64,000 nucleotides of DNA from an uncultured Gammaproteobacteria bacterium (lineage in GTDB: Bacteria > Patescibacteriota > Patescibacteriia > Magasanikbacterales > UBA922). Below the pieces are notes generated by a model. That model searched no databases, was not told the DNA's origin, and saw nothing but the letters and a program-made list of their open reading frames with translations. The DNA is taken from NCBI GenBank assembly GCA_964349825.1, contig CAYGHM010000002.1, forward strand, positions 620 to 64,619. The letters are read 5' to 3'. Below, piece by piece: positions 2,490-60,365 of the stretch (positions are counted from its first letter, which is position 1; the number at the start of each line of letters is the position of its first letter). Made by a program: the position numbers and the translations under genes.

Positions 2490-2592
2490 ATAGGAAATAC
2501 AGAATAGAGAATGAAGAATAGGGAATAAAATACACACGCTCTTCATTCTATATTCTCTATTCTTCATTCTCTATTCTGTATTCTGTATTCTG
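2490..2592. repeat. long imperfect palindrome built from GAATAGA/GAATGAA heptamer runs (family copy 1), lying between znuC and znuB
   Basis: aggaaatacagaatagagaatgaagaatagggaataaaa...ctcttcattctatattctctattcttcattctctattctgtattctg forms two inverted arms. Confidence 0.6.
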
Positions 2593-2593
2593 A

Positions 2594-3313: not shown

Positions 3314-3314
3314 A

Positions 3315-4232: not shown

Positions 4233-4238
4233 AAAAAA

Positions 4239-7301: not shown

Positions 7302-7339
7302 CCCTTATTATACAAAAATCCGCCATAAAGGCGGATATG

Positions 7340-7423
7340 TGGGCCGGGCATGATTCGAACATGCGAAGGCGCAAGGCCAGCAGATTTACAGTCTGCCCCG
7401 GTTGACCGCTTCGGTACCGACCC
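7340..7423 (-). tRNA. tRNA-Tyr (GTA), type II with long variable arm
   Basis: The reverse complement GGGTCGGTACCGAAGCGGTCAACCGGGGCAGACTGTAAATCTGC...TGTTCGAATCATGCCCGGCCCA has acceptor, anticodon and T stems that pair, and an anticodon loop CUGUAAA. Confidence 0.75.
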
Positions 7424-7502
7424 ATCTAACTCATTTACAATGACAGCTAGTGATTATTAGTTAACAACGGTTAGTTAGCAATCATTAAATGTCCATTAAT
7501 TG

Positions 7503-7594
7503 TGGGCCGGGCATGATTCGAACTGCGAAGCCCGCCAACGTCGGCGGGCAGCAGATTTACAGTCTGCCCCGGTTGACCGCTTCGGTACCGACCC
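7503..7594 (-). tRNA. tRNA-Tyr (GTA), second copy, with an unusually long GC-rich variable arm
   Basis: Same acceptor, D, anticodon and T arms as copy 1. The variable arm is TGCCCGCCGACGTTGGCGGGCTTCGCA and the total length is about 92 nt. Confidence 0.6.
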
Positions 7595-7688
7595 AAGATC
7601 AATATTCAATTTTCAATTTCTAATTTTTAATTGCATTCCACTTAGCACATAAATGGAAATTGAGAATTGAAAATTGGAAATTTCTAAT

Positions 7689-7764
7689 TGGAGCCAACTC
7701 GGGGATTCGAACCCCGGACCGACGGTTTACAAAACCGTTGCTCTACCAGCTGAGCTAAGTTGGC
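7689..7764 (-). tRNA. tRNA-Thr (TGT), CCA encoded
   Basis: Reverse complement GCCAACTTAGCTCAGCTGGTAGAGCAACGGTTTTGTAAACCGTCGGTCCGGGGTTCGAATCCCCGAGTTGGCTCCA; the acceptor stem is perfectly paired and the anticodon loop is UUUGUAA. Confidence 0.85.
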
Positions 7765-24786: not shown

Positions 24787-24788
24787 AA

Positions 24789-26117: not shown

Positions 26118-26121
26118 ATAT

Positions 26122-27540
26122 CTACGCTTTAGTCAGCACTTTAATAGTCCCTTTACTCGCATCGACTTCTACTATATCCCCATCTTTCAATATAGTCGTC
26201 GCCACTTTGGTGCCTACAATACAAGGCACACCAAGCTCGCGAGAAACAATCGCCGCATGAGAAGTAAGTCCGCCAGTATCCGTGACAACGGCGCTTGCCT
26301 TTTTCATGATAAAAACATATTCAGGTGTTGTCATGGAAGTAACCAATACATCTCCATCATCAAACCCTACCACATTATGCGGATCAAGCACAATTTTTAC
26401 TTTCCCTGTCACCAGACCCTTTCCTTTACAGGCAATAATACCACTAAAATTTTCAGTACTAGCGTCTACTTGCACATCCACATAAAGTTTCCAGCCGTCG
26501 AGTGTTTCTGATGAGCCCAAAAACTGAACGGTGTTTTCACTTCCGTACACACCAAAAGCTTTCTTTCTCTCATTCGGATCAACAGCGACCGTACGACCAT
26601 TTAGTAGTTCAATAATTTCTGCCCCGGAACAATTCAATAACGTGTTCACATCGAACTGTGGCAAACGCTGTGCTGCCTCAACAAGCAAAATATGCTTATA
26701 ATGCAAATAAATCCAGATATCTTTTTTTCGTGTATCCTGCCATACGATTGCGTCGGTAATCGCTTCTGCAATTGCCATAACTGAATCAGGCAATTTATAT
26801 TCTTCCTGTGTTTCAATTTTTTGCTGACGCACGAGAGCCAATCTTTCCTCTACCTCTTTTCGTATATCCAGAGAAAGTGTTTTTTTTCTTTCTGCAAAAA
26901 ATTCTACTGGCAATACTTCTACATTGGCATAACTATTTCGCAACCAAAAATATTTTTGTTGATGTACAGCAATATCATCCGTCTCGACCAAATCGATTTC
27001 TTCTTCCTGATAAAATGATTTTCCTTCAGGGGCAGTCAATATTTCCATGACATGCATCATCTGTTCTTCTGGAACAAACGGAACAAGCGAACGACGCAAT
27101 ACATCACTTGATCCATAGTTTGATAATTCTGGCAGAATGGCATATACCCAAAATGTCTTCAATAATTTTCCAAAACGTAATAACACATCTTGAAAGGCTT
27201 CGAATGATAAAAGGGACAAGTCAGTAGCGCCAATCTCTTGATTAAGCATGGTAAAATCATGATGTGCCACCATCCACTGTGCGCGAACAGACTCTCGTTT
27301 CTCACGTGGAAGCATCATTTCCAGAAACAGTTTTTCTCCATTTCGCTGCAATGCATCAGCTTCATGCATCCACACCATTCGATTCTCTTTAAATAAAGCT
27401 AAAAAATCTGGCCATCCATATCCAGGAAATTCCTCTGGATAGTCAATAAAAAAAACATCAAAACAATCTGCATAATAAATGTAGAATGGCGTAGGCCCCC
27501 ATTTGAAAATTTCTTTATGTGGATCAAGGTATTGTTTCAT
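26122..27540 (-). CDS. PEP-utilising-enzyme swivel-domain protein, paralog 2
   Basis: C-terminal GDVLVTSMTTPEYVFIMKKASAVVTDTGGLTSHAAIVSRELGVPCIVGT. Confidence 0.75.
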   Translation of the reverse strand: MKQYLDPHKEIFKWGPTPFYIYYADCFDVFFIDYPEEFPGYGWPDFLALFKENRMVWMHEADALQRNGEKLFLEMMLPREKRESVRAQWMVAHHDFTMLNQEIGATDLSLLSFEAFQDVLLRFGKLLKTFWVYAILPELSNYGSSDVLRRSLVPFVPEEQMMHVMEILTAPEGKSFYQEEEIDLVETDDIAVHQQKYFWLRNSYANVEVLPVEFFAERKKTLSLDIRKEVEERLALVRQQKIETQEEYKLPDSVMAIAEAITDAIVWQDTRKKDIWIYLHYKHILLVEAAQRLPQFDVNTLLNCSGAEIIELLNGRTVAVDPNERKKAFGVYGSENTVQFLGSSETLDGWKLYVDVQVDASTENFSGIIACKGKGLVTGKVKIVLDPHNVVGFDDGDVLVTSMTTPEYVFIMKKASAVVTDTGGLTSHAAIVSRELGVPCIVGTKVATTILKDGDIVEVDASKGTIKVLTKA

Positions 27541-27543
27541 AAA

Positions 27544-28548
27544 CTAAGTTATTTTTCTAATAATTCCTCTGTTCGCATCAACCTCAATAATATCTCCATC
27601 TTTCAACAATTGCGTTGCAATCTTCGTTCCAATAACGCAAGGAATCTTCATCTCTCTAGAAACGATAGCGGCGTGACAGAGTAATCCACCCTCATCAGTA
27701 ACAAAGGCTCCGGCCAATTTCATTGCTGGTAAAAAATCCGGAGTTGTCATTGGCGAAACCAAAATATCACCCTGAAGTACTTTTGATAAATCTTCCTTGG
27801 TATACACAATTTTTACCTTTCCTATTACAGTGCCTTTATACCCTATCTGTCCGCTAATTTCTTTTGCATCAACAACGTCATCAGATGTCAATTCAAAGGC
27901 TTTTTCTGTTGCAAGTTTTTCTATACTGAGAGGATAAATATTTGCAGCACAATCCTCCACAAATAGATTGCTTACATCTGAAATTCTAGAAAATTCTATA
28001 TATTCTATTAATTGTTTTACCTGTATAACTTTTACCTGTTCTAAGGGTAACCCGCTTGATACAAGAGATCTTCTTATAAAATCATCAGCGAGGCTCCAAA
28101 GATCATCTCCTTCTCTCTGTTCTTTACTCCAGCTACGTATATCATCCGGCCATTCTTCTGTCATTGAAGAAATAAACATGACGTGATTTGAAAAACGAAG
28201 GTCGTTAAATAGTCGACACATTTCCAAAACGTCTTTTGGATATACATCTTTTTTTTCTGAAAGTTTTCTTATGCTTTCGGCGATTCGTGTATAATCTTTT
28301 TTTGTTTGTTCAAATAATACACTATCAGTAAGTAGGCTATCTTTTATCTTATTATTCCAGTAATCAAACGATTCCTTGTTTAACCAAAATTCAACAACTC
28401 CATTTTTTACATACTTCAGGACCGGACTACTCAACACCGGATCAAAAGAATCAACCAAGGCTTCTGGAAAATGATAAAAACCAGAAGATGCTAGTAAAAA
28501 TGTAATATCTCTGGAATATGTTTTTTCAAAAACAATTTTTTTATTCAC
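27544..28548 (-). CDS. PEP-utilising-enzyme swivel-domain protein, paralog 1 (shortest, 334 aa)
   Basis: C-terminal GDILVSPMTTPDFLPAMKLAGAFVTDEGGLLCHAAIVSREMKIPCVIGT. Confidence 0.75.
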   Translation of the reverse strand: MNKKIVFEKTYSRDITFLLASSGFYHFPEALVDSFDPVLSSPVLKYVKNGVVEFWLNKESFDYWNNKIKDSLLTDSVLFEQTKKDYTRIAESIRKLSEKKDVYPKDVLEMCRLFNDLRFSNHVMFISSMTEEWPDDIRSWSKEQREGDDLWSLADDFIRRSLVSSGLPLEQVKVIQVKQLIEYIEFSRISDVSNLFVEDCAANIYPLSIEKLATEKAFELTSDDVVDAKEISGQIGYKGTVIGKVKIVYTKEDLSKVLQGDILVSPMTTPDFLPAMKLAGAFVTDEGGLLCHAAIVSREMKIPCVIGTKIATQLLKDGDIIEVDANRGIIRKIT

Positions 28549-28638
28549 ACTGTTTGAATCTTATTCAATCAAAATTAAATTACACTTCTCCTTCATCGTA
28601 TTTTACAAATAACTTTCAAATATATTTGGATATAAATT

Positions 28639-29583
28639 TTACCCCAAAGTCGTAATTGGTCGACTCTGCACAACATAAATAGTACTGTTCTGCATTGCCC
28701 ATTCAATATCACAAGGGAAACCATAGTGCTTTTCAATGCGCATAATCACATCCGACAATTCAACAATCTGTCGACCGGATAATTTTTGCACTGCCTTTTT
28801 ATTATCTTCAACATCTACCCATTCATTACCGCCCTCTGACTTTCGTACCATCATGCGTTCCTGATCAGCAATATTAATATCGAGAATATTACGTGGTTCT
28901 TTTTCCAATACATAACTATCTGGCGTAATCTGTCCGGACACCACTGCTTCTCCCAATCCCCAACCCGCTTCGATAATCATTTGATTATAATCTTGTGTTA
29001 CCGGGTGAACAGAAAATGCGATACCAGAAATTTCTGACTGAACCATCACTTGCACCACAACCGCCACTGAGACGTGGGTTTCACTAAATCCTTTTTCAAA
29101 TCGGTAAAAAATCGCACGCGGCGTAAACAATGATGCCCAACAACGACGAACATTCGTAAGTAAATTTTCTTCGTTTGTATTTAAATAACTTTCCAACTGT
29201 CCTGCCCACGCAGCCTCTGCTCCATCTTCTGCTGTCGCACTCGATCGAACCGCGACATATTCAGCATTCAATCCGTGAAATGATTCAATAATTGATTTTC
29301 CCAAATCTTCAGGAAAAGCCACATTCAAAATAAGCGCATGGATCTGCTCAGAAGCGTTTTCAATCGTATGAATTTCTTGAACATTTACCTTGCCTAAAAT
29401 CGCATTGATCTCTACATTCAAATCAGTTTCTTCAATAAAACGATCAAAAGCAGGAGCGGTAACAACAAATCCTGGAGGTACTGGAATGCCTGCTCGAGTC
29501 ATTTCTCCGAGAGAAGCACCCTTTCCTCCGGCAATATCAACATGATCTTTGGAAAGCTCAGTAAAAGGAACTACGTATTGCAT
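28639..29583 (-). CDS. stand-alone ATP-grasp nucleotide-binding domain protein of PEP synthase / pyruvate phosphate dikinase N-terminal type
   Basis: MQYVVPFTELSKDHVDIAGGKGASLGEMTRAGIPVPPGFVVT...AVRSSATAEDGAEAAWAGQ...FSVHPVT...IEWAM is the PPDK_N/PpsA N-terminal signature. It is the first gene of the five-gene operon. Confidence 0.8.
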   Translation of the reverse strand: MQYVVPFTELSKDHVDIAGGKGASLGEMTRAGIPVPPGFVVTAPAFDRFIEETDLNVEINAILGKVNVQEIHTIENASEQIHALILNVAFPEDLGKSIIESFHGLNAEYVAVRSSATAEDGAEAAWAGQLESYLNTNEENLLTNVRRCWASLFTPRAIFYRFEKGFSETHVSVAVVVQVMVQSEISGIAFSVHPVTQDYNQMIIEAGWGLGEAVVSGQITPDSYVLEKEPRNILDINIADQERMMVRKSEGGNEWVDVEDNKKAVQKLSGRQIVELSDVIMRIEKHYGFPCDIEWAMQNSTIYVVQSRPITTLG

Positions 29584-30790: not shown

Positions 30791-30909
30791 CATGCGAACT
30801 ACGAAAAATACGAAAGTACGAACAATACAAAGCGAAAATGATTCTGAACTGACAAATTTACAAGTTACCCCCATTTCGTAATTTCGTCCCATTTCGTAAT
30901 TCGCATGTT
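30788..30909. mobile_element. MITE-like repeat copy C (diverged, with internal ACGAA/TTTCGTAA direct subrepeats) in the divergent promoter region
   Basis: aacatgcgaactacgaaa...tttcgtaattcgcatgtt; its right end abuts TTGTCT-N17-TATAAT just upstream of the 30968 gene. Confidence 0.5.
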
Positions 30910-30967
30910 TGTCTATCACGATTACATAGAGTATAATACCGCTAGGCCCAAAAGTCAAAGTATCATT

Positions 30968-33232
30968 ATGAGCCATCTTGAACTACAGGAGTTTTTCGTT
31001 GAAGGGCACGAACAGCGGACATCCCACGTCCTCCTCCATATTACTGAACCGAGCACAGCCGATGAATTGGCCAAAGGCTATTTTTTTGCGTTGATAGAAA
31101 TTAATAGCGCAACTATCGGAAATATAGAGAAATTTCAAAAGATGATTGATGATATTGAAAAGGGATATTATGAAACCGATCACGGTGATGAAAAAGACCC
31201 TTTTGAAGCAACTCTGGAATTTATTAATCGACGTTCAGAGCAATTGCTCGAAGAAAAAATTGAAGTAAACGCCCTTATCGGCGTTATTCGAAACAATACT
31301 CTCGCCTTCGCAGTACATGGAAATCCACATGCCTATCTCTTTTACCGTCAAAAACAAGAGTTTGGCAGTGTAAATATTTTGGAAGGTAATGATGCACAGC
31401 ATACTCGTGAATTATTTCCTTCTGTTCTTCAGGGCAATCTCAATGCAGGTGATTTCCTCTTTGTAGGAACTCCACATGTTATAGAATTCATTGCGCCAGA
31501 CCGATTACAAAAACTCATCACTTCCCGTTCCACCAAACAAAGTTCGGAACATATTCAAAAAGTATTATCAGATACTAATAGCGAATATTCTTTTGGTGGT
31601 ATTATATTCCGTATTCTTCCTCATTCAGAGAAAATACCGCCAACATTCCAACAAAAAGCAAACACCCCACAAGGGTCAGAGGCATCACTGAATAAACTCA
31701 TGCACGCAAAACAACAAACAGCAGAAACACTGTCCCCGCCCGTATTCCGTCAATTACTTCGTCGCATCAAAGAAAAAATGGGGCAAGAAAAACAGACCAA
31801 TACCACCTCCACTCATACCACCAGACACTCGTCTGCCCCTTCCATTGCTAAACAGCATCAATATGACGAATCAACAAAGCATGTGCCAAAACATACTGGA
31901 CCAGAAGAAACAATTTCCAACGCTCTTCTCATTGGTTTCGGTCGTGCAATTGTTATTGGCTTGGTTGGATTTGGCAAAACAATCAAATACATCGTCCTCA
32001 CGCTAGTAAAACTTCTTATCGGACTCTTCATCCTTATTACTAATAAAAACAATAGTCGCAAAGAGGTCGTCCGATCTATGCAAACAAAAGGAAGAAACCT
32101 TCTTGATATCTTTGAAAACCTTCCTGTAATCAGTAAATTCCTATTTGTTCTTACCATATTTGCTGTTATTATTTTTAGTATTAGCCTCAGCACGCTGCAT
32201 ATTCGCAGACAATACGTGGTGAAACAAGAAACATACAAAAATATTATCAGCGCTGTGCAAAATAAAAAAGATGCAGCTGAAGCAAGTATTATTTACGACG
32301 ATAATACAACTGCCCTTACCCTTCTTACCGAGGCTCGCGATCTTCTCAACCAATTACCAGAAAAAGACAAAAAAGCTGATGAACAAAAATCACAATTTGA
32401 ACAAAGCATTCAAGAAAGTTTAAGAAAAGTACAAAAAATGAAAGAGGTATCACCAGAACTCATTACGTCTCTCGGAAGTCCGGGAAAACAAGTGGGTACA
32501 GAAAAATTGGTTCGTATAGATGATACACTCATTGCGTATGGACCAAATGATCCTCTCTTATACCGTGTTAATGTAAATACAAAAGCAATGGAAGAAACAA
32601 ATCACGAAACAATGACCGGACTTCGCATTGCCTCGACACCAAAAGAACAGGATACCATTGTATTTATTCATGCAGACAATCGTATTGCTACCTATCAAAA
32701 AGACTCTGGATTACTTTCACCAAAAACAATTGGCTATCCAGGAACCACTACCAATATTGTGGATGCGTTTATCTACAATGTAAAACTTTATACACTTGAT
32801 CAGAGTACCAATCAAATATACAAGCATAGCAAAACGCAAACTGGTTATGACAAAGGAACAGCATGGTTAAAAACAACAACTGACTTATCACAAGCACAAT
32901 CATTTGCCATTGACGGTGATATGTTTATATTGAACAAGGATGGCAACATCCTTAAATTTACCAGTGGCGAACAGCAGACATTTACCATTTCTGGACTTGA
33001 ACCAGCGCTCGATGAGCCATCACAACTCTGGACGTACAATGAGGTAAAAAATATCTACATTCTGGAACCAAAAAATAAACGTGTTGTTGTGCTTGATAAA
33101 ACAGGAAAGCTCGTTCAGCAATACACCTCTTCTTCTTGGCTTAAACCTACTGACATGGTGATTGATGAAACAGGTAAAACAGCATACATATTAGACGATA
33201 ATAAAATATATTCCTTTGCTTTAGAAAAATAA
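30968..33232 (+). CDS. large hypothetical membrane protein: N-terminal cytoplasmic domain, central TM pair, C-terminal beta-rich extracytoplasmic domain
   Basis: Start MSHLELQEFF; TM helices LLIGFGRAIVIGLVGFG and LFVLTIFAVIIFSISL; no catalytic motif recognised; 755 aa. Confidence 0.45.
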   Translation: MSHLELQEFFVEGHEQRTSHVLLHITEPSTADELAKGYFFALIEINSATIGNIEKFQKMIDDIEKGYYETDHGDEKDPFEATLEFINRRSEQLLEEKIEVNALIGVIRNNTLAFAVHGNPHAYLFYRQKQEFGSVNILEGNDAQHTRELFPSVLQGNLNAGDFLFVGTPHVIEFIAPDRLQKLITSRSTKQSSEHIQKVLSDTNSEYSFGGIIFRILPHSEKIPPTFQQKANTPQGSEASLNKLMHAKQQTAETLSPPVFRQLLRRIKEKMGQEKQTNTTSTHTTRHSSAPSIAKQHQYDESTKHVPKHTGPEETISNALLIGFGRAIVIGLVGFGKTIKYIVLTLVKLLIGLFILITNKNNSRKEVVRSMQTKGRNLLDIFENLPVISKFLFVLTIFAVIIFSISLSTLHIRRQYVVKQETYKNIISAVQNKKDAAEASIIYDDNTTALTLLTEARDLLNQLPEKDKKADEQKSQFEQSIQESLRKVQKMKEVSPELITSLGSPGKQVGTEKLVRIDDTLIAYGPNDPLLYRVNVNTKAMEETNHETMTGLRIASTPKEQDTIVFIHADNRIATYQKDSGLLSPKTIGYPGTTTNIVDAFIYNVKLYTLDQSTNQIYKHSKTQTGYDKGTAWLKTTTDLSQAQSFAIDGDMFILNKDGNILKFTSGEQQTFTISGLEPALDEPSQLWTYNEVKNIYILEPKNKRVVVLDKTGKLVQQYTSSSWLKPTDMVIDETGKTAYILDDNKIYSFALEK

Positions 33233-36451: not shown

Positions 36452-37606
36452 GTGATAAAATATAGACTAAATATTATGTGGAAACTCTATTTAATGACGA
36501 TCCGATCTTGGTATGCTCGCCACTGGTGGTTAACACCACTGACTGTTTTTGTTATCTGGAGAATTATTTTAGAAATTATCGGACAGTCTGCCTTCATCCT
36601 ACATCCAGACATAATAATACCTTGGAAAGATAATCCCAATCCTCCAATTTGGGCTCGATGGGATAGCGGTTGGTACTACTCGATTGTAAATGACAACTAT
36701 CACCTAAAAGAAACAGGAGCAATGTCCAATGTCACCTTTTTTCCACTCTTCCCTCTTTTGTGGAAATTTATTGAAATTATTACTCCCTTAAAAGGTTTTG
36801 CCGCAGCCCTCTTTACGACCAATATTCTCACCTGTTTAGGATTTATTATCTTTTACCGCTGGATGAAAGATAAGTGGGATAAACTAATTGCGTTAAAAGC
36901 GTTAATAGCTCTAGCAATTTTTCCGACCTCTTTCTTTTTTATCAGTGCCTATAGCGAATCAACACTTTTTCTCCTTATAGTAACAACACTTTTACTCAGC
37001 TCAAGACAGCAATGGAAGCTCGCAGCAATAACAGTTGCACTAGCGAGCGCGTCGCGTCCCACAGGTATTTTTTTATGGCCGCTCTTGCTATGGTTCTGGT
37101 GGTTACACTATGCAAACAAGTCAAAACCACGGCATGAATTTTTCACAATATTATTTATTCCACCAGTTGGACTTATTATTTTTTCCGCATATCTCTATAT
37201 CAAAACAGGTAATCCTCTTGCATGGTTCACCAGCCAATCAGCTGCTGGACGAGATTTAGTATTACCTACTAATCTCTTGTGGGCATATACCAAAAATATA
37301 TTTGTCAGAGGAGATTATTGGTTAAAACATGTGGCAGAAATGGGAGCATTACTTTTTACAGTAGCCCTATTACCCACATTGAGAAAAATACATCCAGCCT
37401 ATGTATTCTATACTATATTAAATCTTCTTCCATCACTTTTTAGTAATACGCTCACAAGCATACAACGTTTCGTCCTAGTGATAGCACCTTTATTTTTGGC
37501 AGTTGTGATGCAAAAAAAATGGATATATGCGATATATTGTACAATTTCTGGTATTTTACTCTTATACAGCATTCTTTGTTTTATTACTTTTCAATGGGCA
37601 GGTTAA
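36452..37606 (+). CDS. polytopic membrane protein, putative GT-C-type glycosyl/mannosyltransferase (DUF2029/PIG-V-like)
   Basis: About 10 TM helices; the loop motif WARWDSGWYYSIVNDNY is typical of the GT-C mannosyltransferase-like family. Confidence 0.45.
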   Translation: MIKYRLNIMWKLYLMTIRSWYARHWWLTPLTVFVIWRIILEIIGQSAFILHPDIIIPWKDNPNPPIWARWDSGWYYSIVNDNYHLKETGAMSNVTFFPLFPLLWKFIEIITPLKGFAAALFTTNILTCLGFIIFYRWMKDKWDKLIALKALIALAIFPTSFFFISAYSESTLFLLIVTTLLLSSRQQWKLAAITVALASASRPTGIFLWPLLLWFWWLHYANKSKPRHEFFTILFIPPVGLIIFSAYLYIKTGNPLAWFTSQSAAGRDLVLPTNLLWAYTKNIFVRGDYWLKHVAEMGALLFTVALLPTLRKIHPAYVFYTILNLLPSLFSNTLTSIQRFVLVIAPLFLAVVMQKKWIYAIYCTISGILLLYSILCFITFQWAG

Positions 37607-37635
37607 TGGTTTAAAAGGGCTATTTTTATTTAGTA

Positions 37636-37664
37636 TTGACAAAAAACTCAATTTATGATAAACT
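37636..37664 (+). promoter_or_regulatory. sigma70-type promoter TTGACA-N17-TAAACT (extended TG) for GC-rich cassette 5
   Basis: agtaTTGACAaaaaactcaatttaTGaTAAACT. Confidence 0.45.
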
Positions 37665-37778
37665 TCTTTGTTATTTATGTTGGTATAAATAACGGATATT
37701 TTGCTTATCTTCTCTTATGGAAGGTTATAAAAATACCCGTTAGTTTCCAAACACACTCAATACGGGTTGGAGGTGCAC

Positions 37779-38159
37779 ATGCGAAAGTGGACTCTCGTCG
37801 TTATCCTCTGGGATCACGGCAGCAGCTACGAAGCGACCACAATGAAGCTGGTGCGGAGGAAGGACGTGGAAGGATACCTGAAATCCGTGACAAAACACGG
37901 GCAAACACAGGCCATCCCGGGGTTCTTCCAACAGCAGAAGGTGGCGTTCCGGACGTTTTCCGAAGCGTTCCCTGGCCACGTCATCCCCCTGAAGGAGGAA
38001 AAGCGTCCCAGCTGGAAAACGCCGCTGGCAATGCTGACACTTTCCGTGGACAGGGAATCAGTGCTGCGACTCGCGGCCATCCTCAAAGACAGGCCAATCG
38101 CTGTCTTCGAGGGTCATCGCCGTCAAGGTGCCCCACCAGTACAACTACTGTGCGTGTAA
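37779..38159 (+). CDS. GC-rich small hypothetical protein (127 aa)
   Basis: GGAGGTG SD 5 nt before the ATG (MRKWTLVVILWDHGSSYEA...); about 58% GC; followed by a chain of hairpins. Confidence 0.45.
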   Translation: MRKWTLVVILWDHGSSYEATTMKLVRRKDVEGYLKSVTKHGQTQAIPGFFQQQKVAFRTFSEAFPGHVIPLKEEKRPSWKTPLAMLTLSVDRESVLRLAAILKDRPIAVFEGHRRQGAPPVQLLCV

Positions 38160-38285
38160 TACGCAAAATACCCCATCTTCCACCATACGGTGGGGTAGAG
38201 CGATATCTGACTTTATCGCTCCATCTGTTTGCAACAGATGTTCTCGGCTTCACAGCCTGTGAGGAAGGAAAGGTCAGACAACTTG

Positions 38286-38342
38286 GACCGCCCGCAATCA
38301 CTTAAAATTATAAAACATTATAATTTTAAGTGACGGGCGGTC
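38286..38342. terminator. very long perfect hairpin closing cassette 5 (about 24-bp stem)
   Basis: GACCGCCCGcaaTCACTTAAAATTATAAaacaTTATAATTTTAAGTGACGGGCGGTC. Confidence 0.55.
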
Positions 38343-39598: not shown

Positions 39599-42500
39599 TT
39601 ATTCAACCACAGATACTGATTCTTCCCCCACCATTTCTTTCAGAAAACTCTCCACATCTTTATTCCATCCTATCGTTGCCTGGGCACGAATCACATCGTT
39701 ACCAACACGGATATACACCGTATGCTGTCCTGGGTAGCGAGAGAAGACTGTTTTCAATCCTTCGCTGCATGCTTTTAATTGATCCCGTGTCATAGTTAGC
39801 GTAATCGTTTTTTCCGGAGCGGCATTTTTTTGTTCTGTTACTTTGCCGAGCGACAACTGTCGCGCAAGCATCTGAACATTATCTTTATTCAAAACATGAA
39901 CATTTTCTACAAATATTTTATTATCCCCTTCTTCTTTTGGTGTTTTTCCGACAATACACACGACTGTATTTTCTTTCCACAGTGCCTGAGTCGTTTCATA
40001 AATTTTTGGGAATACCAGTACTTCCATAGTTCCACTCGGATCTTGAATTGTGACAAAAAGCATCACGTTCCCCTTCTTGGTAATTTTCTTTTTTGCGCTA
40101 TCAATAACACCACATACAACAACCCACGCATCACGATCACACGCCTCTATATCTGAAAGCGGAGTAACGGTTCCTTTCATTTGGGACAAATACACTGCGC
40201 ATGGATGTGATGATACATACAATCCGAGTAAATTCTTTTCCCACGTTAATTTCTGGTCCATGGTTGCGACGGGCGCATCTTTCAGAATCAATTTATTTTC
40301 CATTTCAATCGCTGTGCCAGCAAATAAAGAAAACTGGGTTGTTTCTCGTTTGTCTCTCGTGTGCTTGGCAAATGATAGAATATTTTCACTATTGGTAAGC
40401 AAAACACCACGATCATGACCAAAACAATCGAGCGCTCCCGCTTGAGCCATGCTTTCGATCGATTTTTTATTTAAATCTTTATCCTGCACACGTTCCAAAA
40501 GATCTTGTAAACTTATATATGTTCCATGTTCTTTGCGTTCACGATACACGACTTCACACACATGAGTTCCTACATTTTTAATTGCATTCAAACCAAAACG
40601 AATACGCCCTCGCTCCCCTGGTTTTGATACCATAGCAAAGTTTCGGAAACTTTCATTCACATCCGGAGGAAGTACCTCAATATTCATGCGATGACATTCA
40701 TGAACAATGGCCGCAACTTTCTCTGAATCGCCAAATTCCGCAGCCAAGACAGCTGTCATATACTGTACAGGATAATGTGCTTTCATGAACGCAGTCTGAT
40801 ACGCCACGATACCATAACTTGCCGCATGGGCTTTATTAAATCCATAGGCAGCAAACGGTTCGATTGCCCGCCACATTTCATCAACGATATCTTTTTTCAG
40901 TTTTCCATGATTCAAACAGCCATCGTAAAATTTAATTTTCTGCTGCGCCATTTCTTCTGGAATTTTTTTACCCATGGCTTTACGGAATTTATCCGCTTCC
41001 ATCCAGTCGTACCCCGCCAATTCAATAGCGGTCAACATCACATCGTCCTGATATACAAGAAGTCCGTATGATGCCTGTAAAATTTTCTCAAGGCGAGGAT
41101 CAAAATATTTTACAAATTCAGGATTGTATTTACGCTTAATATATTCAGGGATAGATTCCATCGGACCAGGGCGGTATAAAGCAACCATGGCCATGATATC
41201 ATCGATATTACTCGGACGAAGTTCCTTGAGCCAACGAGTCATACCGGAACCGGACAACTGAAACACACCCATAGTTTCTCCACGCGCGAGCATCTCAAAC
41301 ACCTTAGTATCATCAAGCGGCAAATTATAAATATCCACTTCTTCCCCTGTTGTTTTTTTTACAATTTCGACGGCATTTCCAAGAATCGCCAAATTACGAA
41401 TTCCCAAAAAGTCATTTTTTAATACCCCTGCAGTTTCAACGGCTTTCATTTCATACTGTGTCGTAATCCTATCCCCACCTGTTTCACGTTGGACGGGGGT
41501 ATAATCCGTCAATGGTGTCGGGGAAATAACCACACCTGCCGCATGAATAGATGTGTGGCGTGCACAGCCTTCTACTTTTTTTGCCAGATCAAGCAATCGT
41601 TGTGCATCTTCGTTTGAATCATACAATTTTTTCAAATCCGGTTCTTCTTTGAGCGCACGTTCAATAGTCATAGGAAAACCTTGCGCGCCTTGGGGAATCA
41701 TCTTTGATACCTGATCACAAAAATTATACGACAAACCAAGCGCACGACCCACATCTCGAACACTCGCGCGTGCAGCCATTGTCCCAAAGGTAATAATTTG
41801 AGCAACACGATCTGCACCGTATTTATTGGTAACATATTCAATCATTTCATCCCGACGATCATCGGCAAAATCGGTATCAATATCCGGCGCACTCGGACGA
41901 AATGGATTTAGGAAACGCTCAAACGGCAGTTTAAATCGCAATGGATCTACCGTGGTAATACCCATAACATACGATACCAGTGATCCGGCAGCCGAACCAC
42001 GAGTAGACTCCACGATACCTTTGCTTTTTGCAAAACGCACATAATCCGCTACACACAAAAAGTATGGAGAATATCCTTTTGTTCTAATAATACCCAATTC
42101 GTATTCCAAACGTTCGCGAATTTCATCCGTTAATTCTGGATAATACATGGAAACGCGAGCATACGTTTCTTCCTGAAGCACATCATCTTCTGTTTTTCCT
42201 GGCGGCAAATCAACGGGCGCAAAATGCCATATATTCAGTGGAATTTCCAGATTAATCCGATTGGCAATGACAACCGTATTTTGTACTGCTTCCGGAATAT
42301 GTTTAAAGCGTTCAGAAATTTCTTCGGCAGAACAAAATGACCGATCAATATCGCGATAATCAGCACGATCAGTATAACTTACTTTCCATCCCTCACGAAT
42401 ACAGCATAAAATATCCTGTGCTTCCGCATCTTCGGTATTAAGATAATGTACATCGCGACTTGCCACAAGCGGAATCCCCGTTTCTTGTGAAATCCGAATA

Positions 42501-43072
42501 AGTTCATTATTCACAATAGACTGACCTTCGAGCGCAGGATGATCTTGAATTTCCAAATAAAAATTTCCTTGTCCAAAAATATCATTGTATTCTTCTGCAA
42601 CGCGTTTTGCCTCTTCTAATCTTTGTTGTAATAATAATGAAGGAATTTCTCCATTCAAATCTCCCGAAAGCGCAATAAGTCCTTTTCCGTATTCACGAAG
42701 CAATTCTTTATCAACACGCGGTTTGCCATTAAAAAAACCATCCAAATGACTAATCGACGTCATTTTCATCATGTTTTGATATCCCTGAAAATTTTCTGCA
42801 AGAAGAATAATTGAAAAACGATCTTTATCAAGTTCCAAGTCTTTATCATAGAGCCGACGTGGCCCCAAATACATCTCTGTTCCAATAATCGGTTTGATGC
42901 CTTCCGCAAGGCAAGCCTGGTAAAACTCAATTGCACCATACATCGCGCCGGAATCAGTAATTGCCACAGCCGAAAAACCCCGTGCTTTAGCGGTTTTAGC
43001 AAGATATTTTGGCTTCATCAACCCATCGAGCAGCGAATAATGGGAGTGAACGTGAAGATGAACAAATTCCAT
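39599..43072 (-). CDS. dnaE: DNA polymerase III alpha subunit
   Basis: N-terminal PHP domain MEFVHLHVHSHYSLLDG; 1157 aa; polymerase core motifs. Confidence 0.95.
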   Translation of the reverse strand: MEFVHLHVHSHYSLLDGLMKPKYLAKTAKARGFSAVAITDSGAMYGAIEFYQACLAEGIKPIIGTEMYLGPRRLYDKDLELDKDRFSIILLAENFQGYQNMMKMTSISHLDGFFNGKPRVDKELLREYGKGLIALSGDLNGEIPSLLLQQRLEEAKRVAEEYNDIFGQGNFYLEIQDHPALEGQSIVNNELIRISQETGIPLVASRDVHYLNTEDAEAQDILCCIREGWKVSYTDRADYRDIDRSFCSAEEISERFKHIPEAVQNTVVIANRINLEIPLNIWHFAPVDLPPGKTEDDVLQEETYARVSMYYPELTDEIRERLEYELGIIRTKGYSPYFLCVADYVRFAKSKGIVESTRGSAAGSLVSYVMGITTVDPLRFKLPFERFLNPFRPSAPDIDTDFADDRRDEMIEYVTNKYGADRVAQIITFGTMAARASVRDVGRALGLSYNFCDQVSKMIPQGAQGFPMTIERALKEEPDLKKLYDSNEDAQRLLDLAKKVEGCARHTSIHAAGVVISPTPLTDYTPVQRETGGDRITTQYEMKAVETAGVLKNDFLGIRNLAILGNAVEIVKKTTGEEVDIYNLPLDDTKVFEMLARGETMGVFQLSGSGMTRWLKELRPSNIDDIMAMVALYRPGPMESIPEYIKRKYNPEFVKYFDPRLEKILQASYGLLVYQDDVMLTAIELAGYDWMEADKFRKAMGKKIPEEMAQQKIKFYDGCLNHGKLKKDIVDEMWRAIEPFAAYGFNKAHAASYGIVAYQTAFMKAHYPVQYMTAVLAAEFGDSEKVAAIVHECHRMNIEVLPPDVNESFRNFAMVSKPGERGRIRFGLNAIKNVGTHVCEVVYRERKEHGTYISLQDLLERVQDKDLNKKSIESMAQAGALDCFGHDRGVLLTNSENILSFAKHTRDKRETTQFSLFAGTAIEMENKLILKDAPVATMDQKLTWEKNLLGLYVSSHPCAVYLSQMKGTVTPLSDIEACDRDAWVVVCGVIDSAKKKITKKGNVMLFVTIQDPSGTMEVLVFPKIYETTQALWKENTVVCIVGKTPKEEGDNKIFVENVHVLNKDNVQMLARQLSLGKVTEQKNAAPEKTITLTMTRDQLKACSEGLKTVFSRYPGQHTVYIRVGNDVIRAQATIGWNKDVESFLKEMVGEESVSVVE

Positions 43073-43238
43073 AATAAAGAGAATTGGAGGGGTAGTGCGG
43101 CTATCCTACCACTTCCGCGCGCCAAGTTCAAGATTTCACAAAATAGACCACTTCAACTATAATAAGATGCAGGCAATAAGTATTTGACTGTTGCTTATAA
43201 CTTATTTACTTACAGCTTTTTATTAATAATACTGTTTT

Positions 43239-43808
43239 ATGAAGTCATTGACAGCATATCTTCTCGTTCTTTCTACCTTGGTATTTATCGGCGCAGGGTG
43301 CAAATCTACTGAAGTAAAGAAAACCGAGGTGTCTGCTCCTCAACCAGAACCGATTGTTCAGGAGGAAAAACAAGATGCTAAAAATCCAGCAACTACAGAT
43401 GAAAAAAATGATGATGAGGTAAATACACAAGGTGAAGTGAAGACTGACATAAAAACCGTATCCCCTATCACAAAACCACAACCTACCCCTGAAAAAAAGG
43501 AAGAAACGCAACCAAAACCAGTCGTGTCAGCAGTAAAAGAATTCACCATGGTTGCCAAAAACTGGAACTTTGAGCCATCAACCATCACGGTCAAAAAAGG
43601 TGATACAGTTAAACTTCATATTAAAAGTGTCGACGTTGATCACGGATTTACCTTAAGCGATTTCGGTGTAAGTAAAACATTGAAACCAGGCGAAACGGTA
43701 ACTGTCGAATTCATTGCTGATAAAGCGGGCAATCACTCCTTCTTCTGCTCAGTATTTTGTGGCGCTGGACACAAAGAAATGCGAGGGACACTCGTGGTAA
43801 CCGAATAA
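43239..43808 (+). CDS. CuA-type cupredoxin-domain lipoprotein (COX2-like copper centre, no oxidase partner nearby)
   Basis: Lipobox LVFIGAGC; C-terminal VDHGFTL...FFCSVFCGAGHKEM matches the H...CxxxCGxxHxxM CuA ligand spacing. Confidence 0.6.
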   Translation: MKSLTAYLLVLSTLVFIGAGCKSTEVKKTEVSAPQPEPIVQEEKQDAKNPATTDEKNDDEVNTQGEVKTDIKTVSPITKPQPTPEKKEETQPKPVVSAVKEFTMVAKNWNFEPSTITVKKGDTVKLHIKSVDVDHGFTLSDFGVSKTLKPGETVTVEFIADKAGNHSFFCSVFCGAGHKEMRGTLVVTE

Positions 43809-43876
43809 CCAAAAAAGACCTGTCCAGCAAGACAGGTCTTTTCTTTTTAAAGGGGTTGGGCTAAGATACCATTACT

Positions 43877-44866
43877 ATGGTAGTTATTATCATTATCTTA
43901 TTAATCCTTATTATCATCCCACTTATGTCCCACGAAACTGGCGCATCACCAAAACATGTATTCATGTACCTGCTCCTCATCGCCATGCTTTACGTAAGTG
44001 TGGTCAGTTTTATTGCAATTATTTTTCAATATATTAATGTTCTTCTTCCTGATCCACTTCAATACTATTTACCGGGAATTTACGATACCATTCGATTTGC
44101 CTCATCCTCACTTGTTGTGGCCTTCCCAGTATATTTACTCATGTCTTGGCTTCTTGAAAAAGAATATATCCGTGTCCCCGAAGCAAAACAATTAAAAAGC
44201 CGAAAATGGCTTGTCTACCTCACTCTCTTTATTGCGGCAATCACTATCATTGTTGACTTGGTTCAATTGGTAAATAACTTTTATCGTGGTGAACTAACAT
44301 GGTCATTCACATTGAAAATAATGACTGTTCTTATTGTGGCGGCCACAGTATTTGGTTATCACTTATGGGATTTACAAAAAGACCTAGAAAGTAAAGTCAA
44401 AAAAATGATTGGAGGAATCATCTCAGTCGTTGTCCTCGCAACACTTATTGCCGGATTCTTCATTGCTGGCTCTCCACAACACCAACGAAATGTACGATTT
44501 GACCAGCAGCGCACGACAGATTTGAATACTATTCAATATCAAATTCTTGATTATTGGCAGAGAAAAAAAACATTACCTGCCCAATTGTCTGATTTGGAAG
44601 ACTCCATTACTGGATTCCAAGTACCAAAAGATCCGGCAACTGGTACAGCGTATACATATGAAATAAAAGGAAACCTTTCTTTTACTCTCTGTGCTGATTT
44701 TGCAGCGGAACAAGAAGGAGGAAAGGGAGACTCCCGCAATATTGCCCCCATGTATCCTATGAATGAATTTGGCGCGAACGACAACTGGTCTCACAAGGCA
44801 GGCCGCACCTGTTTCGACCGAACTATCGACCCGGAGAGACATGCTTTGCCACAACAGAAAATATAG
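43877..44866 (+). CDS. hypothetical polytopic membrane protein with hydrophilic C-terminal domain
   Basis: Five to six TM helices in the N-terminal 200 aa; the C-terminal DLNTIQYQILDYWQRKKTLPAQLSDL...DPATGTAYTYE is weakly pseudopilin-like. Confidence 0.4.
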   Translation: MVVIIIILLILIIIPLMSHETGASPKHVFMYLLLIAMLYVSVVSFIAIIFQYINVLLPDPLQYYLPGIYDTIRFASSSLVVAFPVYLLMSWLLEKEYIRVPEAKQLKSRKWLVYLTLFIAAITIIVDLVQLVNNFYRGELTWSFTLKIMTVLIVAATVFGYHLWDLQKDLESKVKKMIGGIISVVVLATLIAGFFIAGSPQHQRNVRFDQQRTTDLNTIQYQILDYWQRKKTLPAQLSDLEDSITGFQVPKDPATGTAYTYEIKGNLSFTLCADFAAEQEGGKGDSRNIAPMYPMNEFGANDNWSHKAGRTCFDRTIDPERHALPQQKI

Positions 44867-57298: not shown

Positions 57299-58435
57299 AT
57301 GTCTGAAGAACCACTCGATCTCAATTCACTAAAAACGGGAATGGATAGCGCGCTCCGGAAAGCACTTCCTGATTTTTTGTCTTCCGATGAAAATGCCGAT
57401 ATTATTTCGAGACAAATTGAAGAGATATTGAAAAATAGTCTACCAAACATGGTCGCGGAATCCGCGCAATCTGGCATGGCGCCGCAACAAGCAGAAGACA
57501 TGCTCAACCAATTTGGTGCAAGCCCTCAAGAATCATCACAACCACAAGAAGACGATGCCCAAAGTGGGGCATACGAGGCAGCAGAACCAGATGAGTACGG
57601 CAAAGAAAAAAATGACGAAGAAAATGCGGAAGACAAAGACTCCACTGGTGAAGAACAAGGTAATGAAAAAGACGAAGCGGGAGAACCAGGACAAGAAGAA
57701 GCTGCCGCTGAACCAGAAAATAATCCACAAGAACAAGAACCCCAAACAGAAGCTCCGGCAGCACCAGATAAAAACCCCCAAGAAAATCCCTCTTCTCCAG
57801 AAGGTGAAACAGAAGAACAACCACAAACAAAAGAGGGAGATTCGCTTGGATTTGATAAGCCCACGACAGAACACCCCATGTACGACGAGGCAAATGCAGC
57901 GACCAATCCTGAAGAAAAAAAAGATACAAAGCCAGATGAACAAGAACGTGAAAAAAAACAAGCCGAAGCGCTCCAGCAGGAAAGAAATCAAGCACGTGCA
58001 CAACAAACACAAAATGCCCAACAAGGGCAACAGGCAGCCAATATTTCTTCCCAAAAAAAACAACTTCTTACGAATGCTTCCCGTCTTACGATCAAAGGGT
58101 TGTTTGCATTAAAGGCGGGATATATCGTGACCGACTCTATTGATGTTCTTGAATCTATAGACGGAGCCACAGTTTCTGCCCTCTTCAATATCTTTACTGT
58201 TGCAACTACTGCCAGCATATTTATGGCACAAAATGGAGAAACAAAAAAATTTATTCTCAAAAAATATGCACTTAAAGCATGTGGAGCAGCAATTGCAGAA
58301 TCCATTCCTATTGTGAATATCGTTCCATGGGATACAATAAACGGTTTTATGCTCGCACGTGCTGTCAAAAAGCAAAAAAAAGAGTATACTGAAGAAGCAA
58401 AACGCCTTGAATCAGGAAATCAAACGTCATCATAA
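57299..58435 (+). CDS. acidic low-complexity (E/Q/P-rich) protein with hydrophobic C-terminal region
   Basis: Long EEQPQ/EKDE low-complexity stretch, then LFALKAGYIVTDSIDVLE...ASIFMAQ. Overlapping ORFs in other frames are low-complexity artefacts. Confidence 0.4.
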   Translation: MSEEPLDLNSLKTGMDSALRKALPDFLSSDENADIISRQIEEILKNSLPNMVAESAQSGMAPQQAEDMLNQFGASPQESSQPQEDDAQSGAYEAAEPDEYGKEKNDEENAEDKDSTGEEQGNEKDEAGEPGQEEAAAEPENNPQEQEPQTEAPAAPDKNPQENPSSPEGETEEQPQTKEGDSLGFDKPTTEHPMYDEANAATNPEEKKDTKPDEQEREKKQAEALQQERNQARAQQTQNAQQGQQAANISSQKKQLLTNASRLTIKGLFALKAGYIVTDSIDVLESIDGATVSALFNIFTVATTASIFMAQNGETKKFILKKYALKACGAAIAESIPIVNIVPWDTINGFMLARAVKKQKKEYTEEAKRLESGNQTSS

Positions 58436-58473
58436 AAATAAAAAATTAACTTCCTTAAACCGCAATTACCCAT

Positions 58474-59718
58474 TTGTCATTTCTCCCTATGGACAAAAGA
58501 CGTATCATTATTATCACTATCTTCACGCTCGTGTGTATCGGCATTGGCTATCTTCTTTATCGTGTATTCTTCTATACGGCACCCAAACCACTTATAACAA
58601 CAACAGAAGAATCAACAGAAGGATCTCAATTTCCTCAAGCGAATCAAGGTGGCCCTAAACCAGGAGAAATTACCGAAACAGGAGCACTCCCAGCAAGTGA
58701 AACGCAGCAATCTGGCTCAGAAGAAGGCGGACCTGGAACAGATTTCACCCCAGGACAAGTAGACCAAGTAGTAAGCAATGCCATCACTGGTGTATCCAAA
58801 GATTCCACCTCTGGCAATCCACGTTTTTATAATAGCCAAGATGGAAAATTCTATCGGATCGGCGCAAATGGACAACCTGAAGCATTAAGTGACCAAGTAT
58901 TCTATAACGTTGACGATGTTACCTGGTCTCCAATATCCGATGAGTCAATTATTGAATATCCAGATGGGGCAAATATTTATTATAATTTTGATACAAAAAA
59001 ACAGGCAACGCTTCCAAAACATTGGGAATCATTTTCTTTTGCTCCGAGTGGAGATAAAATTGCCGCAAAAAGTCTTGCCTTCTCACCTGAAAATCGCTGG
59101 CTCGTTGCATCTGATCCAGACGGCAACAATATTGAACTTGTTGAACCGTTAGGAAATAATGCAGACAAAGTTATTGTGGATTGGTCACCAAATAAACAAA
59201 TAGTTGCCTTGTCTACTACAGGAGAAGATTTGGGAAGCGATCGTCAAGAAGTACTTTTTATTGGAAAAAATGGAGAAAATTTTAAATCAACCGTAGTCGA
59301 AGGACGTGGTCTGATAACAAACTGGTCTCAAACAGGAGAAAAATTACTATATAGCGTACATAGCGCGCGAAACGAATTCAAACCTGAGTTATGGATTGTC
59401 CACTCTGCAGGTGATGCAATTGGTGAAAATCGCAAACCTATCCAGCTCAATACATGGGCAGACAAATGTACATTTACTGATGATCGTTTTGCGTATTGTG
59501 GTGTGCCAAGAGAATTACCAAAAGGCGCAGGCTTTGCCCCATCACTTGCAGACAATATTCCTGACGATCTCTACAAAATTGATGTTGAAACTGGTATAAA
59601 AATAAAATTGCCAATAGCAACTGACCACGTCATTGAATCCATGTTTGTCGGCAAAGATGGAAAAACGATTTATTTTACGGATAAAAACCAACCAGGTTTA
59701 TTTACCGTATCCCCATAA
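58474..59718 (+). CDS. membrane-anchored PD40/TolB-like beta-propeller repeat protein
   Basis: N-terminal TM; repeated WSP-type segments (VDWSPNKQIVAL, FAPSGDKIAAKS, TNWSQTGEKLLY). Confidence 0.45.
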   Translation: MSFLPMDKRRIIIITIFTLVCIGIGYLLYRVFFYTAPKPLITTTEESTEGSQFPQANQGGPKPGEITETGALPASETQQSGSEEGGPGTDFTPGQVDQVVSNAITGVSKDSTSGNPRFYNSQDGKFYRIGANGQPEALSDQVFYNVDDVTWSPISDESIIEYPDGANIYYNFDTKKQATLPKHWESFSFAPSGDKIAAKSLAFSPENRWLVASDPDGNNIELVEPLGNNADKVIVDWSPNKQIVALSTTGEDLGSDRQEVLFIGKNGENFKSTVVEGRGLITNWSQTGEKLLYSVHSARNEFKPELWIVHSAGDAIGENRKPIQLNTWADKCTFTDDRFAYCGVPRELPKGAGFAPSLADNIPDDLYKIDVETGIKIKLPIATDHVIESMFVGKDGKTIYFTDKNQPGLFTVSP

Positions 59719-59723: not shown

Positions 59724-60365
59724 ATGGATACCAAAAAATTACTCCTCATTTTTATTCCTGCCCTTCTCTTTGTATTACTCGGGTTTGCTTTTCGTGTGTA
59801 CCAATACGAACCACTGATCCCAAACAAAAAAAATACGCAGGAAGAAAAAAAACTTGATCTTGTTCCCCTTCTCGCTGAAGATCCTATAATCGGAGAAAAA
59901 AAAGCTCCTATTACCATAGTAGCTTTTGAAGATCTCGCTTGTGGCGGCTGTCGCGCACAATCAGAAATATTCGACGCGCTCATTGCACAATACCCAGGAA
60001 AAATAAAAATTATTTGGAAATTATTAAACGTCACCACATTTCCTCACAATACTGAGTTGGCACATGATTATGCCTTTTGCGCTCACGAACAAGGAAAATT
60101 TGTTGAGTTTAAAAAAGCTGCATTTGCCAATAGTACAAATTTATCTGAAAACATACTCAAAACCATTGTTTCATCTAGTGGTTTAAACGAGAAAAAATTC
60201 CTTGCGTGTCTTGCAACTGATCGACCAAAACAATACCGAGAAAAAAACCACGCTATTGCCTCCTTACTTCATATTCAGGCAGTACCGGCATTGTTCATGG
60301 ACAATAAACAAATCCAAACACCAGCTACTATAGAACATTGGAAGACACTTCTTAATCTTGAATAA
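59724..60365 (+). CDS. DsbA-family thiol:disulfide oxidoreductase (membrane-anchored)
   Basis: N-terminal TM; thioredoxin CxxC motif in EDLACGGCRAQSEIF. Confidence 0.65.
   Translation: MDTKKLLLIFIPALLFVLLGFAFRVYQYEPLIPNKKNTQEEKKLDLVPLLAEDPIIGEKKAPITIVAFEDLACGGCRAQSEIFDALIAQYPGKIKIIWKLLNVTTFPHNTELAHDYAFCAHEQGKFVEFKKAAFANSTNLSENILKTIVSSSGLNEKKFLACLATDRPKQYREKNHAIASLLHIQAVPALFMDNKQIQTPATIEHWKTLLNLE

Follow-up and report, generated by a model that had tools for sequence, protein, structure and literature searches.

A free-standing, lipid-anchored CuA-type cupredoxin predicted in a Patescibacteria genome, and its relatives across CPR bacteria and DPANN archaea

A 64,000-nucleotide stretch of contig CAYGHM010000002.1 (assembly GCA_964349825.1; positions 620 to 64,619), referred to here as the window, belongs to a genome assigned to the Magasanikbacterales of the Patescibacteriota and encodes a small protein with the full ligand set of the binuclear copper site CuA. 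The gene adds a new member, from a bacterium of the candidate phyla radiation (CPR), to a large family of free-standing CuA cupredoxins that has been noticed before but is still uncharacterised biochemically. We propose that its product is a lipid-anchored, tethered extracytoplasmic one-electron carrier with a CuA center, and neither a cytochrome c oxidase subunit nor a nitrous-oxide reductase (NosZ), a reading to which we assign a probability of roughly 0.55. The protein combines a lipobox, a long flexible linker and a single C-terminal cupredoxin domain, and the case for electron transfer comes mainly from a sister clade that has kept this scaffold with a different copper site.

Copper ligands and domain architecture

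A preliminary description of this DNA, prepared from the letters alone, had reported an open reading frame (ORF) at 43239-43808 with the CuA ligand spacing of oxidase subunit II. The coordinates proved exact, the quoted strings are present, and the ligands align with those of Thermus ba3 oxidase. The string VDVDHGF contains His135 (codon 43641-43643), and CSVFCGAGHKEM supplies Cys170 (43746-43748), Cys174 (43758-43760), His178 (43770-43772), and Met181 (43779-43781), with V172 at the backbone-carbonyl position. The resulting spacing, H-x34-C-x3-C-x3-H-x2-M, is that of Thermus ba3 subunit II. Among solved structures, the best sequence matches were the soluble CuA domains of Thermus ba3 (PDB 6pty and 2cua; E values of 4e-14 to 5e-13), with which all CuA ligands aligned column for column. 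Profile searches for COX2 and cupredoxin, a check that the preliminary description had suggested, returned Pfam Cupredoxin_1 (PF13473) at 54.7 bits (cut-off, 27) over residues 97-187, the sole globular domain of the protein and C-terminal, as well as COX2 at 27.9 bits (cut-off, 22). Given these scores and the complete ligand alignment to solved CuA domains, the pattern is homologous to that of known CuA sites and not a chance resemblance. The plastocyanin/azurin family (PF00127) reached only 16.7 bits, under its cut-off of 21.2, and the copper loop holds two cysteines. An identity as a type-1 blue copper protein was rejected on these two grounds, the type-1 loop being a property of the sister clade described below.

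The N-terminus was likewise as first described: MKSLTAYLLVLSTLVFIGAGC matches the PROSITE-type lipobox pattern (FIGAG-C21), with Cys21 as the predicted lipidated residue. We built an AlphaFold2 model from an alignment of 63 homologs and compared it with the PDB by Foldseek. The model contains a single N-terminal helix, at residues 4-17 within the signal peptide, and the oxidase membrane-anchor family COX2_TM had no Pfam match in the protein. Residues 21-100 are modeled without secondary structure, at block-mean predicted local distance difference test (pLDDT) values of 53 to 87, and the cupredoxin domain at block means of 96 to 98. Both the length and the sequence of the tether differ among homologs.

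Structural and profile comparisons placed the domain nearer to the CuA domain of NosZ than to CoxB. Foldseek superimposed it on NosZ CuA domains with a root mean square deviation (rmsd) of 0.8 to 0.9 Å over 89 columns (37 to 40% identity), on the Thermus ba3 CuA domain with an rmsd of 1.0 Å (32 to 35% identity), and on nitrosocyanin (PDB 1iby) with an rmsd of 1.8 Å over 81 columns (41% identity). The best NCBIfam match, local to C-terminal positions 487-577 of the profile, was TIGR04246, the Sec-type NosZ, with 72 bits (cut-off, 625); the CoxB profile TIGR02866 scored 44.7 bits against a cut-off of 147.7.

Distribution, conservation, and variants of the family

To define the extent of the family, we searched sequence collections with the domain alone. 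The domain profile matched at least 618 clusters (50% identity) at an E value of ≤1e-30 among 1.84 billion representatives, and a word-indexed search returned 117 homologs, 105 of which carry C-x3-C-x3-H-x2-M. H135, C170, C174, H178, and M181 are invariant across the 63-sequence alignment. Almost all of the best 150 family representatives are short proteins with the cupredoxin domain at the C-terminus; among the newly returned proteins in that set (n = 132), the motif was found in 130, a lipobox in 92, and a hydrophobic N-terminus in 109. A membrane anchor is thus kept in most homologs, as a lipobox or an N-terminal helix. The window protein itself recurs, identical over its 189 residues, on five independent metagenome contigs, and the cupredoxin gene is carried by the closed genomes OZ246410.1, OZ246400.1, and OZ252287.1.

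A scan of species-representative genomes with a 15-sequence domain alignment yielded 60 loci, mostly from Patescibacteria and DPANN archaea, with a few from Spirochaetia, Thorarchaeota, Binatia, Acidobacteria, and Bathyarchaeota. Woesearchaeota, Aenigmatarchaeota, and Micrarchaeota contribute many homologs of the window protein. In the source records, homologs bear unspecific names ("cupredoxin domain-containing protein" or "cytochrome c oxidase subunit II," the latter given to several by Joint Genome Institute [JGI] pipelines), and we found no biochemical characterisation of the family in the literature on CuA-type cupredoxins in Patescibacteria. A lone, tethered CuA site in a family of hundreds of clusters concentrated in the CPR and DPANN, radiations largely lacking electron-transport chains, implies that these organisms have a so far unrecognised redox or copper function outside the cytoplasm.

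Several metagenome-assembled genomes (MAGs) among the loci (numbered here with the prefix L), including L021, L026, L030, L047, and L058, are titled "uncultured Gammaproteobacteria" or "uncultured Methanosarcinales." These titles look unreliable: the MAGs have gene orders shared with the CPR (dnaE-cupredoxin-pheT, or cupredoxin-SOD-gltX as in Roizmanbacteria) or chromosomes of less than 1 Mb. A separate observation concerns three proteins, P0120 (1,166 residues), P0143 (669 residues), and P0118 (382 residues), which the domain profile matches three to nine times in tandem; no CuA motif occurs in P0120 or P0143, and these two thus appear to be poly-cupredoxin proteins.

The most informative variant is a sister clade within the Patescibacteria (P0102, P0107, P0108, P0111, P0115, and P0116), whose members are 45 to 51% identical to the query domain and therefore nearer to it than the Thermus CuA domain is (33%). 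The anchor, the linker, and the strands are all kept, and the copper loop is three residues shorter (CSV---GxHRxxGM). By sequence, this loop would give a type-1 Cys-His-His-Met ligand set. Outer-sphere electron transfer is the sole function common to type-1 and CuA sites. The predicted type-1 site on the same scaffold is what most strongly leads us to regard electron transfer, and not copper storage, as the conserved function. The clade also parallels, in nature, the type-1/CuA loop swaps made by engineering, and the family offers compact natural CuA proteins (90 to 95 residues) together with natural type-1/CuA loop variants for bioinorganic study.

Domain fusions add a further view of the family. 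Members are fused with the surface modules SLH, DUF7282, DUF6799, DUF4399, and Big_7, which indicates that they are exposed on the cell surface; one homolog carries a fused YHS domain. Spirochaetia MAGs encode CuA cupredoxins with a calcineurin-like metallophosphoesterase fused at the N-terminus (L066, 9134-10261; L069, 9107-10237; L071, 9140-10261). In a Thorarchaeota MAG (L064, 7981-9882), a NapH/MauN-type polyferredoxin membrane protein carries a fused CuA-type cupredoxin (CSVPCGNFHPFM), and a second, free CuA cupredoxin (9887-10261) comes directly after it. We also observed a separate, divergent Metallophos gene adjoining the cupredoxin gene in a DPANN locus (L007, 8787-9947).

Gene neighborhoods and proposed function

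To examine the genomic context of the family, we analyzed the neighbors of the cupredoxin gene in 54 loci, counting Pfam families in the 279 ORFs within 2 kb and assessing enrichment by domain-specific phmmer within 3 kb. The most frequent neighboring family was Thioredoxin_4/DSBA (11 proteins), followed by Fe/Mn superoxide dismutase (6 proteins) and then VKOR, glutaredoxin, DoxX, and HMA. None of COX1, multicopper oxidase/NirK, and NosZ recurred among the 279 ORFs. At least one thiol-redox, reactive oxygen species (ROS), or copper gene (DsbA-like, VKOR, DoxX, superoxide dismutase, glutaredoxin, or CopA/HMA) lay within 3 kb in 21 of the 54 loci. Such genes made up 40 of 376 proximal ORFs but 12 of 503 distal ORFs of the same loci (odds ratio = 4.9, Fisher P = 3.5e-7, uncorrected for shared ancestry), and their pairing with the cupredoxin occurs in bacteria as well as archaea. 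The mycobacterial SodA-DoxX complex may offer a comparison for the superoxide dismutase and DoxX neighbors. The context of the homolog in a cultured Firmicute, Metabacillus arenae, was uninformative.

Several gene orders illustrate this context: DoxX - Trx - VKOR - DsbD_2/cupredoxin - CopA - CuA cupredoxin (L047), DoxX - CuA cupredoxin - VKOR (L018), DsbA - DsbA - CuA cupredoxin (L039), and YHS-CopA - YHS-CuA cupredoxin - RnfD-like (L075). In a Woesearchaeota MAG, the genes ArsR - CuA cupredoxin - MerT - HMA form a compact, codirectional set (L015, 6556-8201), which looks like a metal-responsive operon containing the cupredoxin. An RnfD/NqrB-like membrane protein of 243 to 258 residues is encoded directly after the cupredoxin in two unrelated loci, one from a Parcubacterium (L023, 5692-6453) and one on a metagenome contig from an anaerobe (L075, 8639-9370), and two genes downstream of it in a DPANN genome (L007/L020; L007, 11461-12237). 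This short RnfD-like protein is a possible membrane redox partner. The family context does not favor energy-conserving respiration.

We propose the following course for the protein. After Sec export, it would be anchored by lipid at Cys21 on the outer face of the cell membrane, and its domain would be loaded with two copper ions, for which a CopA-type pump is the probable supplier in the homologous loci. The copper ions would form a binuclear mixed-valence CuA center bridged by Cys170 and Cys174, with His135, His178, and Met181 as the other side-chain ligands. Through its flexible tether of about 75 residues, the domain may extend to partners located in the wall zone or at a host cell. The protein would act at the outer face of the membrane as a mobile one-electron carrier, much like the lipid-modified azurin or the lipoprotein cytochromes c of other bacteria. 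The kinds of partner favored by the family context would be thiol and ROS enzymes (DsbA-like proteins, VKOR, DoxX, and superoxide dismutase) and RnfD-like or NapH-like membrane proteins.

A number of points weigh against this proposal. Copper occupancy, the electron-transfer function, and the kind of partner are predictions, and close structural relatives may hold other sites, as does nitrosocyanin at the identity and rmsd given above. The window copy lies between dnaE and a DUF5671 gene without redox or copper neighbors, no redox partner is encoded beside it, and no electron donor or acceptor was identified. An assembly factor of the Sco or PCuAC type was not seen in Pfam scans of the window. 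The neighbor statistic takes no account of the common descent of the loci, and the CopA, HMA, ArsR, MerT, and YHS contexts fit copper handling equally well. The preliminary description had hedged between extracytoplasmic electron transfer and copper handling, and these match the two readings that are supported by the family-wide context.

Copper handling is the main rival, although we judge it unlikely. The protein would here buffer, trap, or pass on copper exported by CopA, like CopI or the Scs systems, and shuttle no electrons. A CopA-type ATPase gene lies immediately upstream of the cupredoxin gene in L047, at a distance of 44 bp, and in L075, at 48 bp; in L037, one lies within 3 kb. The operon-like set of L015 and the YHS fusion in one homolog point the same way, and DsbA-like and DsbD_2 neighbors may resemble Scs copper-tolerance sets. 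A simple Cu(I) trap, however, does not need the full six-position CuA geometry, which is almost invariant in the family, including the axial Met and both His. The sister clade, moreover, switched to a type-1 electron-transfer site instead of losing its site, a copper exporter beside a cuproprotein is also expected from metallation, and no copper gene lies near the window copy. An electron carrier of a more specialized kind, dedicated to a NirK encoded elsewhere in the genome, is improbable in our estimate. The idea has precedent: a putative cupredoxin was reported in every nirK-bearing CPR bin and was proposed, for Parcubacteria, to feed NirK (PMC5581439), a plastocyanin-like protein was likewise proposed as a NirK donor (PMC12931201), and the window protein is predicted to be extracytoplasmic and tethered, as such a donor would be. 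The family is far wider than nirK, which was found in 4 of 34 high-resolution genomes (PMC5581439), and the published cupredoxins may belong to the type-1 sister clade; the multicopper oxidase/NirK family is absent from the recurrent neighbors, and the window scans showed no nirK.

The two respiratory identities suggested by the CuA site itself were both rejected. Pfam COX2 scored above its cut-off and JGI pipelines have named several homologs after subunit II, which might suggest a cytochrome c oxidase whose other subunits lie outside the window. The protein nevertheless has no transmembrane hairpin, carries its domain on a disordered tether of 75 residues, falls below the TIGR02866 threshold, resembles the NosZ CuA domain more closely, and is encoded by an apparently monocistronic gene with no COX1 in the window. 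Oxidase subunit I is also rare in the phylum: Beam et al. (PMC7507113) detected it in only 0.6% of single-cell genomes from Patescibacteria and not in any genome of DPANN. We regard this identity as very improbable. Equally slight is the chance of a minimal nitrous-oxide reductase, the "nosZ-like" protein of DPANN annotation. In its favor, the best NCBIfam match is the C-terminal part of NosZ, the best structural matches are NosZ chains, and the DPANN proteins are monophyletic, with a position intermediate between Cox2 and clade II NosZ (PMC10936187). Only the CuA domain is present, however: the protein has no β-propeller and no CuZ histidines, it is 189 residues long against about 640, and its 72 bits compare with a cut-off of 625. 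The window holds no nos accessory genes, and DPANN nosZ-like homologs failed to restore significant N2O consumption to a nosZ mutant of Pseudomonas aeruginosa (PMC10936187). Since it is neither an oxidase subunit nor NosZ, the window protein gives metabolic reconstructions no grounds for inferring aerobic respiration or N2O reduction.

The reading as a tethered one-electron carrier can be extended to a specific role, which we put forward as speculation and think unlikely. The cupredoxin might serve as the outlet of a minimal extracytoplasmic redox chain in cells without respiratory chains, taking electrons from DsbA-like/VKOR, DoxX, RnfD-like, or NapH-like proteins and delivering them to O2-derived species, Cu(II), NirK, or the host surface. 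If true, this would be a respiration-independent use of CuA, and the family would be a natural example of type-1/CuA interconversion by loop exchange.

The window locus and known copper proteins

In the window, a promoter-like site and a terminator-like hairpin frame the cupredoxin gene (Table 1), which suggests a monocistronic unit apart from the downstream DUF5671 gene. The promoter-like site, so called from its consensus match alone, was the top-scoring site across the 2.7 kb scanned. Beyond the DUF5671 gene lie a DUF948-like gene and then pheTS. No conserved operon partner of the cupredoxin gene was found. The order dnaE / cupredoxin / DUF5671 is retained only in one close relative; DUF5671 adjoins the cupredoxin gene only in the window locus and in that relative (L013), which is 55% identical. 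A pheT gene is also found near the cupredoxin gene in Magasanikbacteria-like loci, which suggests that the window comes from this lineage or one neighboring it. GC content is about 0.40 throughout, without anomaly, and the composition of the region gives no sign of recent transfer.

Table 1. Coordinates of the cupredoxin gene, its predicted parts, and its neighbors in the window
Feature	Coordinates	Strand	Remarks
Coding sequence of the stand-alone CuA-type cupredoxin lipoprotein	43239-43808	+	189 residues; ATG start; stop codon included
Signal peptide with lipobox, residues 1-21	43239-43301	+	Predicted lipidated Cys21; PROSITE-type pattern; helix 4-17 in model
Low-complexity K/E/P/T/Q-rich tether, residues 22-95	43302-43523	+	Predicted disordered
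Cupredoxin domain, residues 96-189	43524-43805	+	pLDDT 96-98; rmsd to NosZ and ba3 CuA domains given in text
Promoter-like site TTCACA-17-TATAAT	43135-43163	+	11/12 consensus matches; about 76 nucleotides 5′ of start codon
Intrinsic-terminator-like hairpin	43813-43842	+	12-bp stem, then T-run; 5 nucleotides past stop codon
dnaE	39599-43072		Upstream neighbor, divergent from the cupredoxin gene
DUF5671 membrane protein gene	43877-44866		Downstream of the cupredoxin gene

Pfam scans of about 45 ORFs of the window, supplemented by inspection of the called genes of the matching ENA contig (ERZ27247837, k141_1311014), revealed the content of a typical CPR/Patescibacteria fragment, including DUF5671, DUF4012, tRNA synthetases, glycosyltransferases, MreB, and ClpB. 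The preliminary description had also stated that no COX1 or other oxidase subunit is encoded in the window, and this held: neither these scans nor the ENA contig genes contained COX1 or any other oxidase or respiratory family. The Pfam scans of the window ORFs detected no nirK or nos genes and no Lgt/LspA lipoprotein-processing enzymes, and no nos accessory genes (nosR/DFYL and nosB/G/H) lie near the cupredoxin, whose neighbors are dnaE, DUF5671, the DUF948-like gene, and pheT.

Other features of the window were noted in passing. A Fur-family regulator with a ZnuA/ABC-3 metal-uptake operon (Fur-ZnuABC) and a peroxiredoxin (AhpC/TSA) are encoded at 1675-4631 (−) and 6560-7015 (+). A DsbA-like Thioredoxin_4 protein, of the kind that adjoins the cupredoxin in other genomes, is encoded 16 kb from it at 59724-60365 (+). 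An unusual array at 23362-29583 (−), resembling a split and expanded phosphoenolpyruvate (PEP) synthase or pyruvate phosphate dikinase (PPDK), consists of a PPDK_N (ATP-grasp) gene (28639-29583, −) and then four tandem paralogs (27544-28548, 26122-27540, 24789-26117, and 23362-24786), each with only the PEP-utilizers mobile domain at its C-terminus and a long N-terminal region without a Pfam match. Two adjoining tRNA-Tyr(GTA) genes stand beside tRNA-Thr at 7339-7764 (−); one copy is 94 nucleotides long with a low Rfam score (38 bits) and may be an insertion variant or a degraded copy. ORFs of 775, 378, 414, 384, and 216 residues had no Pfam match (E ≤ 1e-5) in the regions 30905-33232, 57299-59718, and 36452-38305 (+).

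To our knowledge, the textbook occurrences of CuA sites are limited to cytochrome c oxidase, N2O reductase, and a single NO reductase, with the PmoD dimer as an unusual addition. A canonical CuA site outside a respiratory enzyme is unusual; the family has already been reported, and the window locus adds no partner to it. The CuA domain of Pseudomonas stutzeri NosZ (PDB 3sbp and 6rl0) has the same cupredoxin fold and the same H...C-x3-C-x3-H-x2-M ligands as the window protein. In NosZ, this is the C-terminal domain of an enzyme of about 640 residues and feeds CuZ in a seven-bladed propeller, whereas the window protein is free, predicted to be lipid anchored on a long tether, and encoded without a propeller or nearby nos genes. 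All ligands can also be aligned with subunit II of the Thermus thermophilus ba3 oxidase (PDB 2cua and 1ehk), and the Pfam COX2 match is above its cut-off. In the oxidase, a transmembrane helix or hairpin keeps subunit II in contact with subunit I; the window protein instead has a predicted cleavable lipoprotein signal and no subunit I nearby. Nitrosocyanin, like the window protein, falls in the Cupredoxin_1 family (local TIGR03096 match, 51 bits against a cut-off of 143), but its site is a mononuclear red copper center; a second Cys and a Met, as in CuA, are present in the window protein.

In overall design, the window protein resembles the lipid-modified azurin Laz of Neisseria, the lipoprotein cytochromes c of Bacillus, and halocyanin, each of which has a single redox domain, a lipid anchor, and a flexible linker and sits on the outer face of the membrane. 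Respiratory partners are known for these proteins, and their redox center is type-1 copper or heme; that of the window protein is predicted to be CuA. PmoD/AmoD is a cupredoxin that forms a CuA-type center outside oxidases and N2O reductase, as is predicted for the window protein; its site spans a homodimer, with one Cys, His, and Met from each monomer, and the window protein has the canonical ligand set within one domain (Fisher et al. 2018, PMC6189053). The closest parallel is found in the DPANN "nosZ-like" proteins, which have a CuA site and no CuZ (Zhang et al. 2024, mBio; PMC10936187). That annotation comes from genomes of oxygen-deficient zones, and the function was left open there. They share with the window protein a short length, the C-x3-C-x3-H motif, and an extracytoplasmic location, which is predicted for the window protein; they occur in organisms without respiratory chains and come from archaea, the window protein from a CPR bacterium. 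On the strength of the matching description and taxa, these proteins appear to be the DPANN arm of the family to which the window protein belongs.

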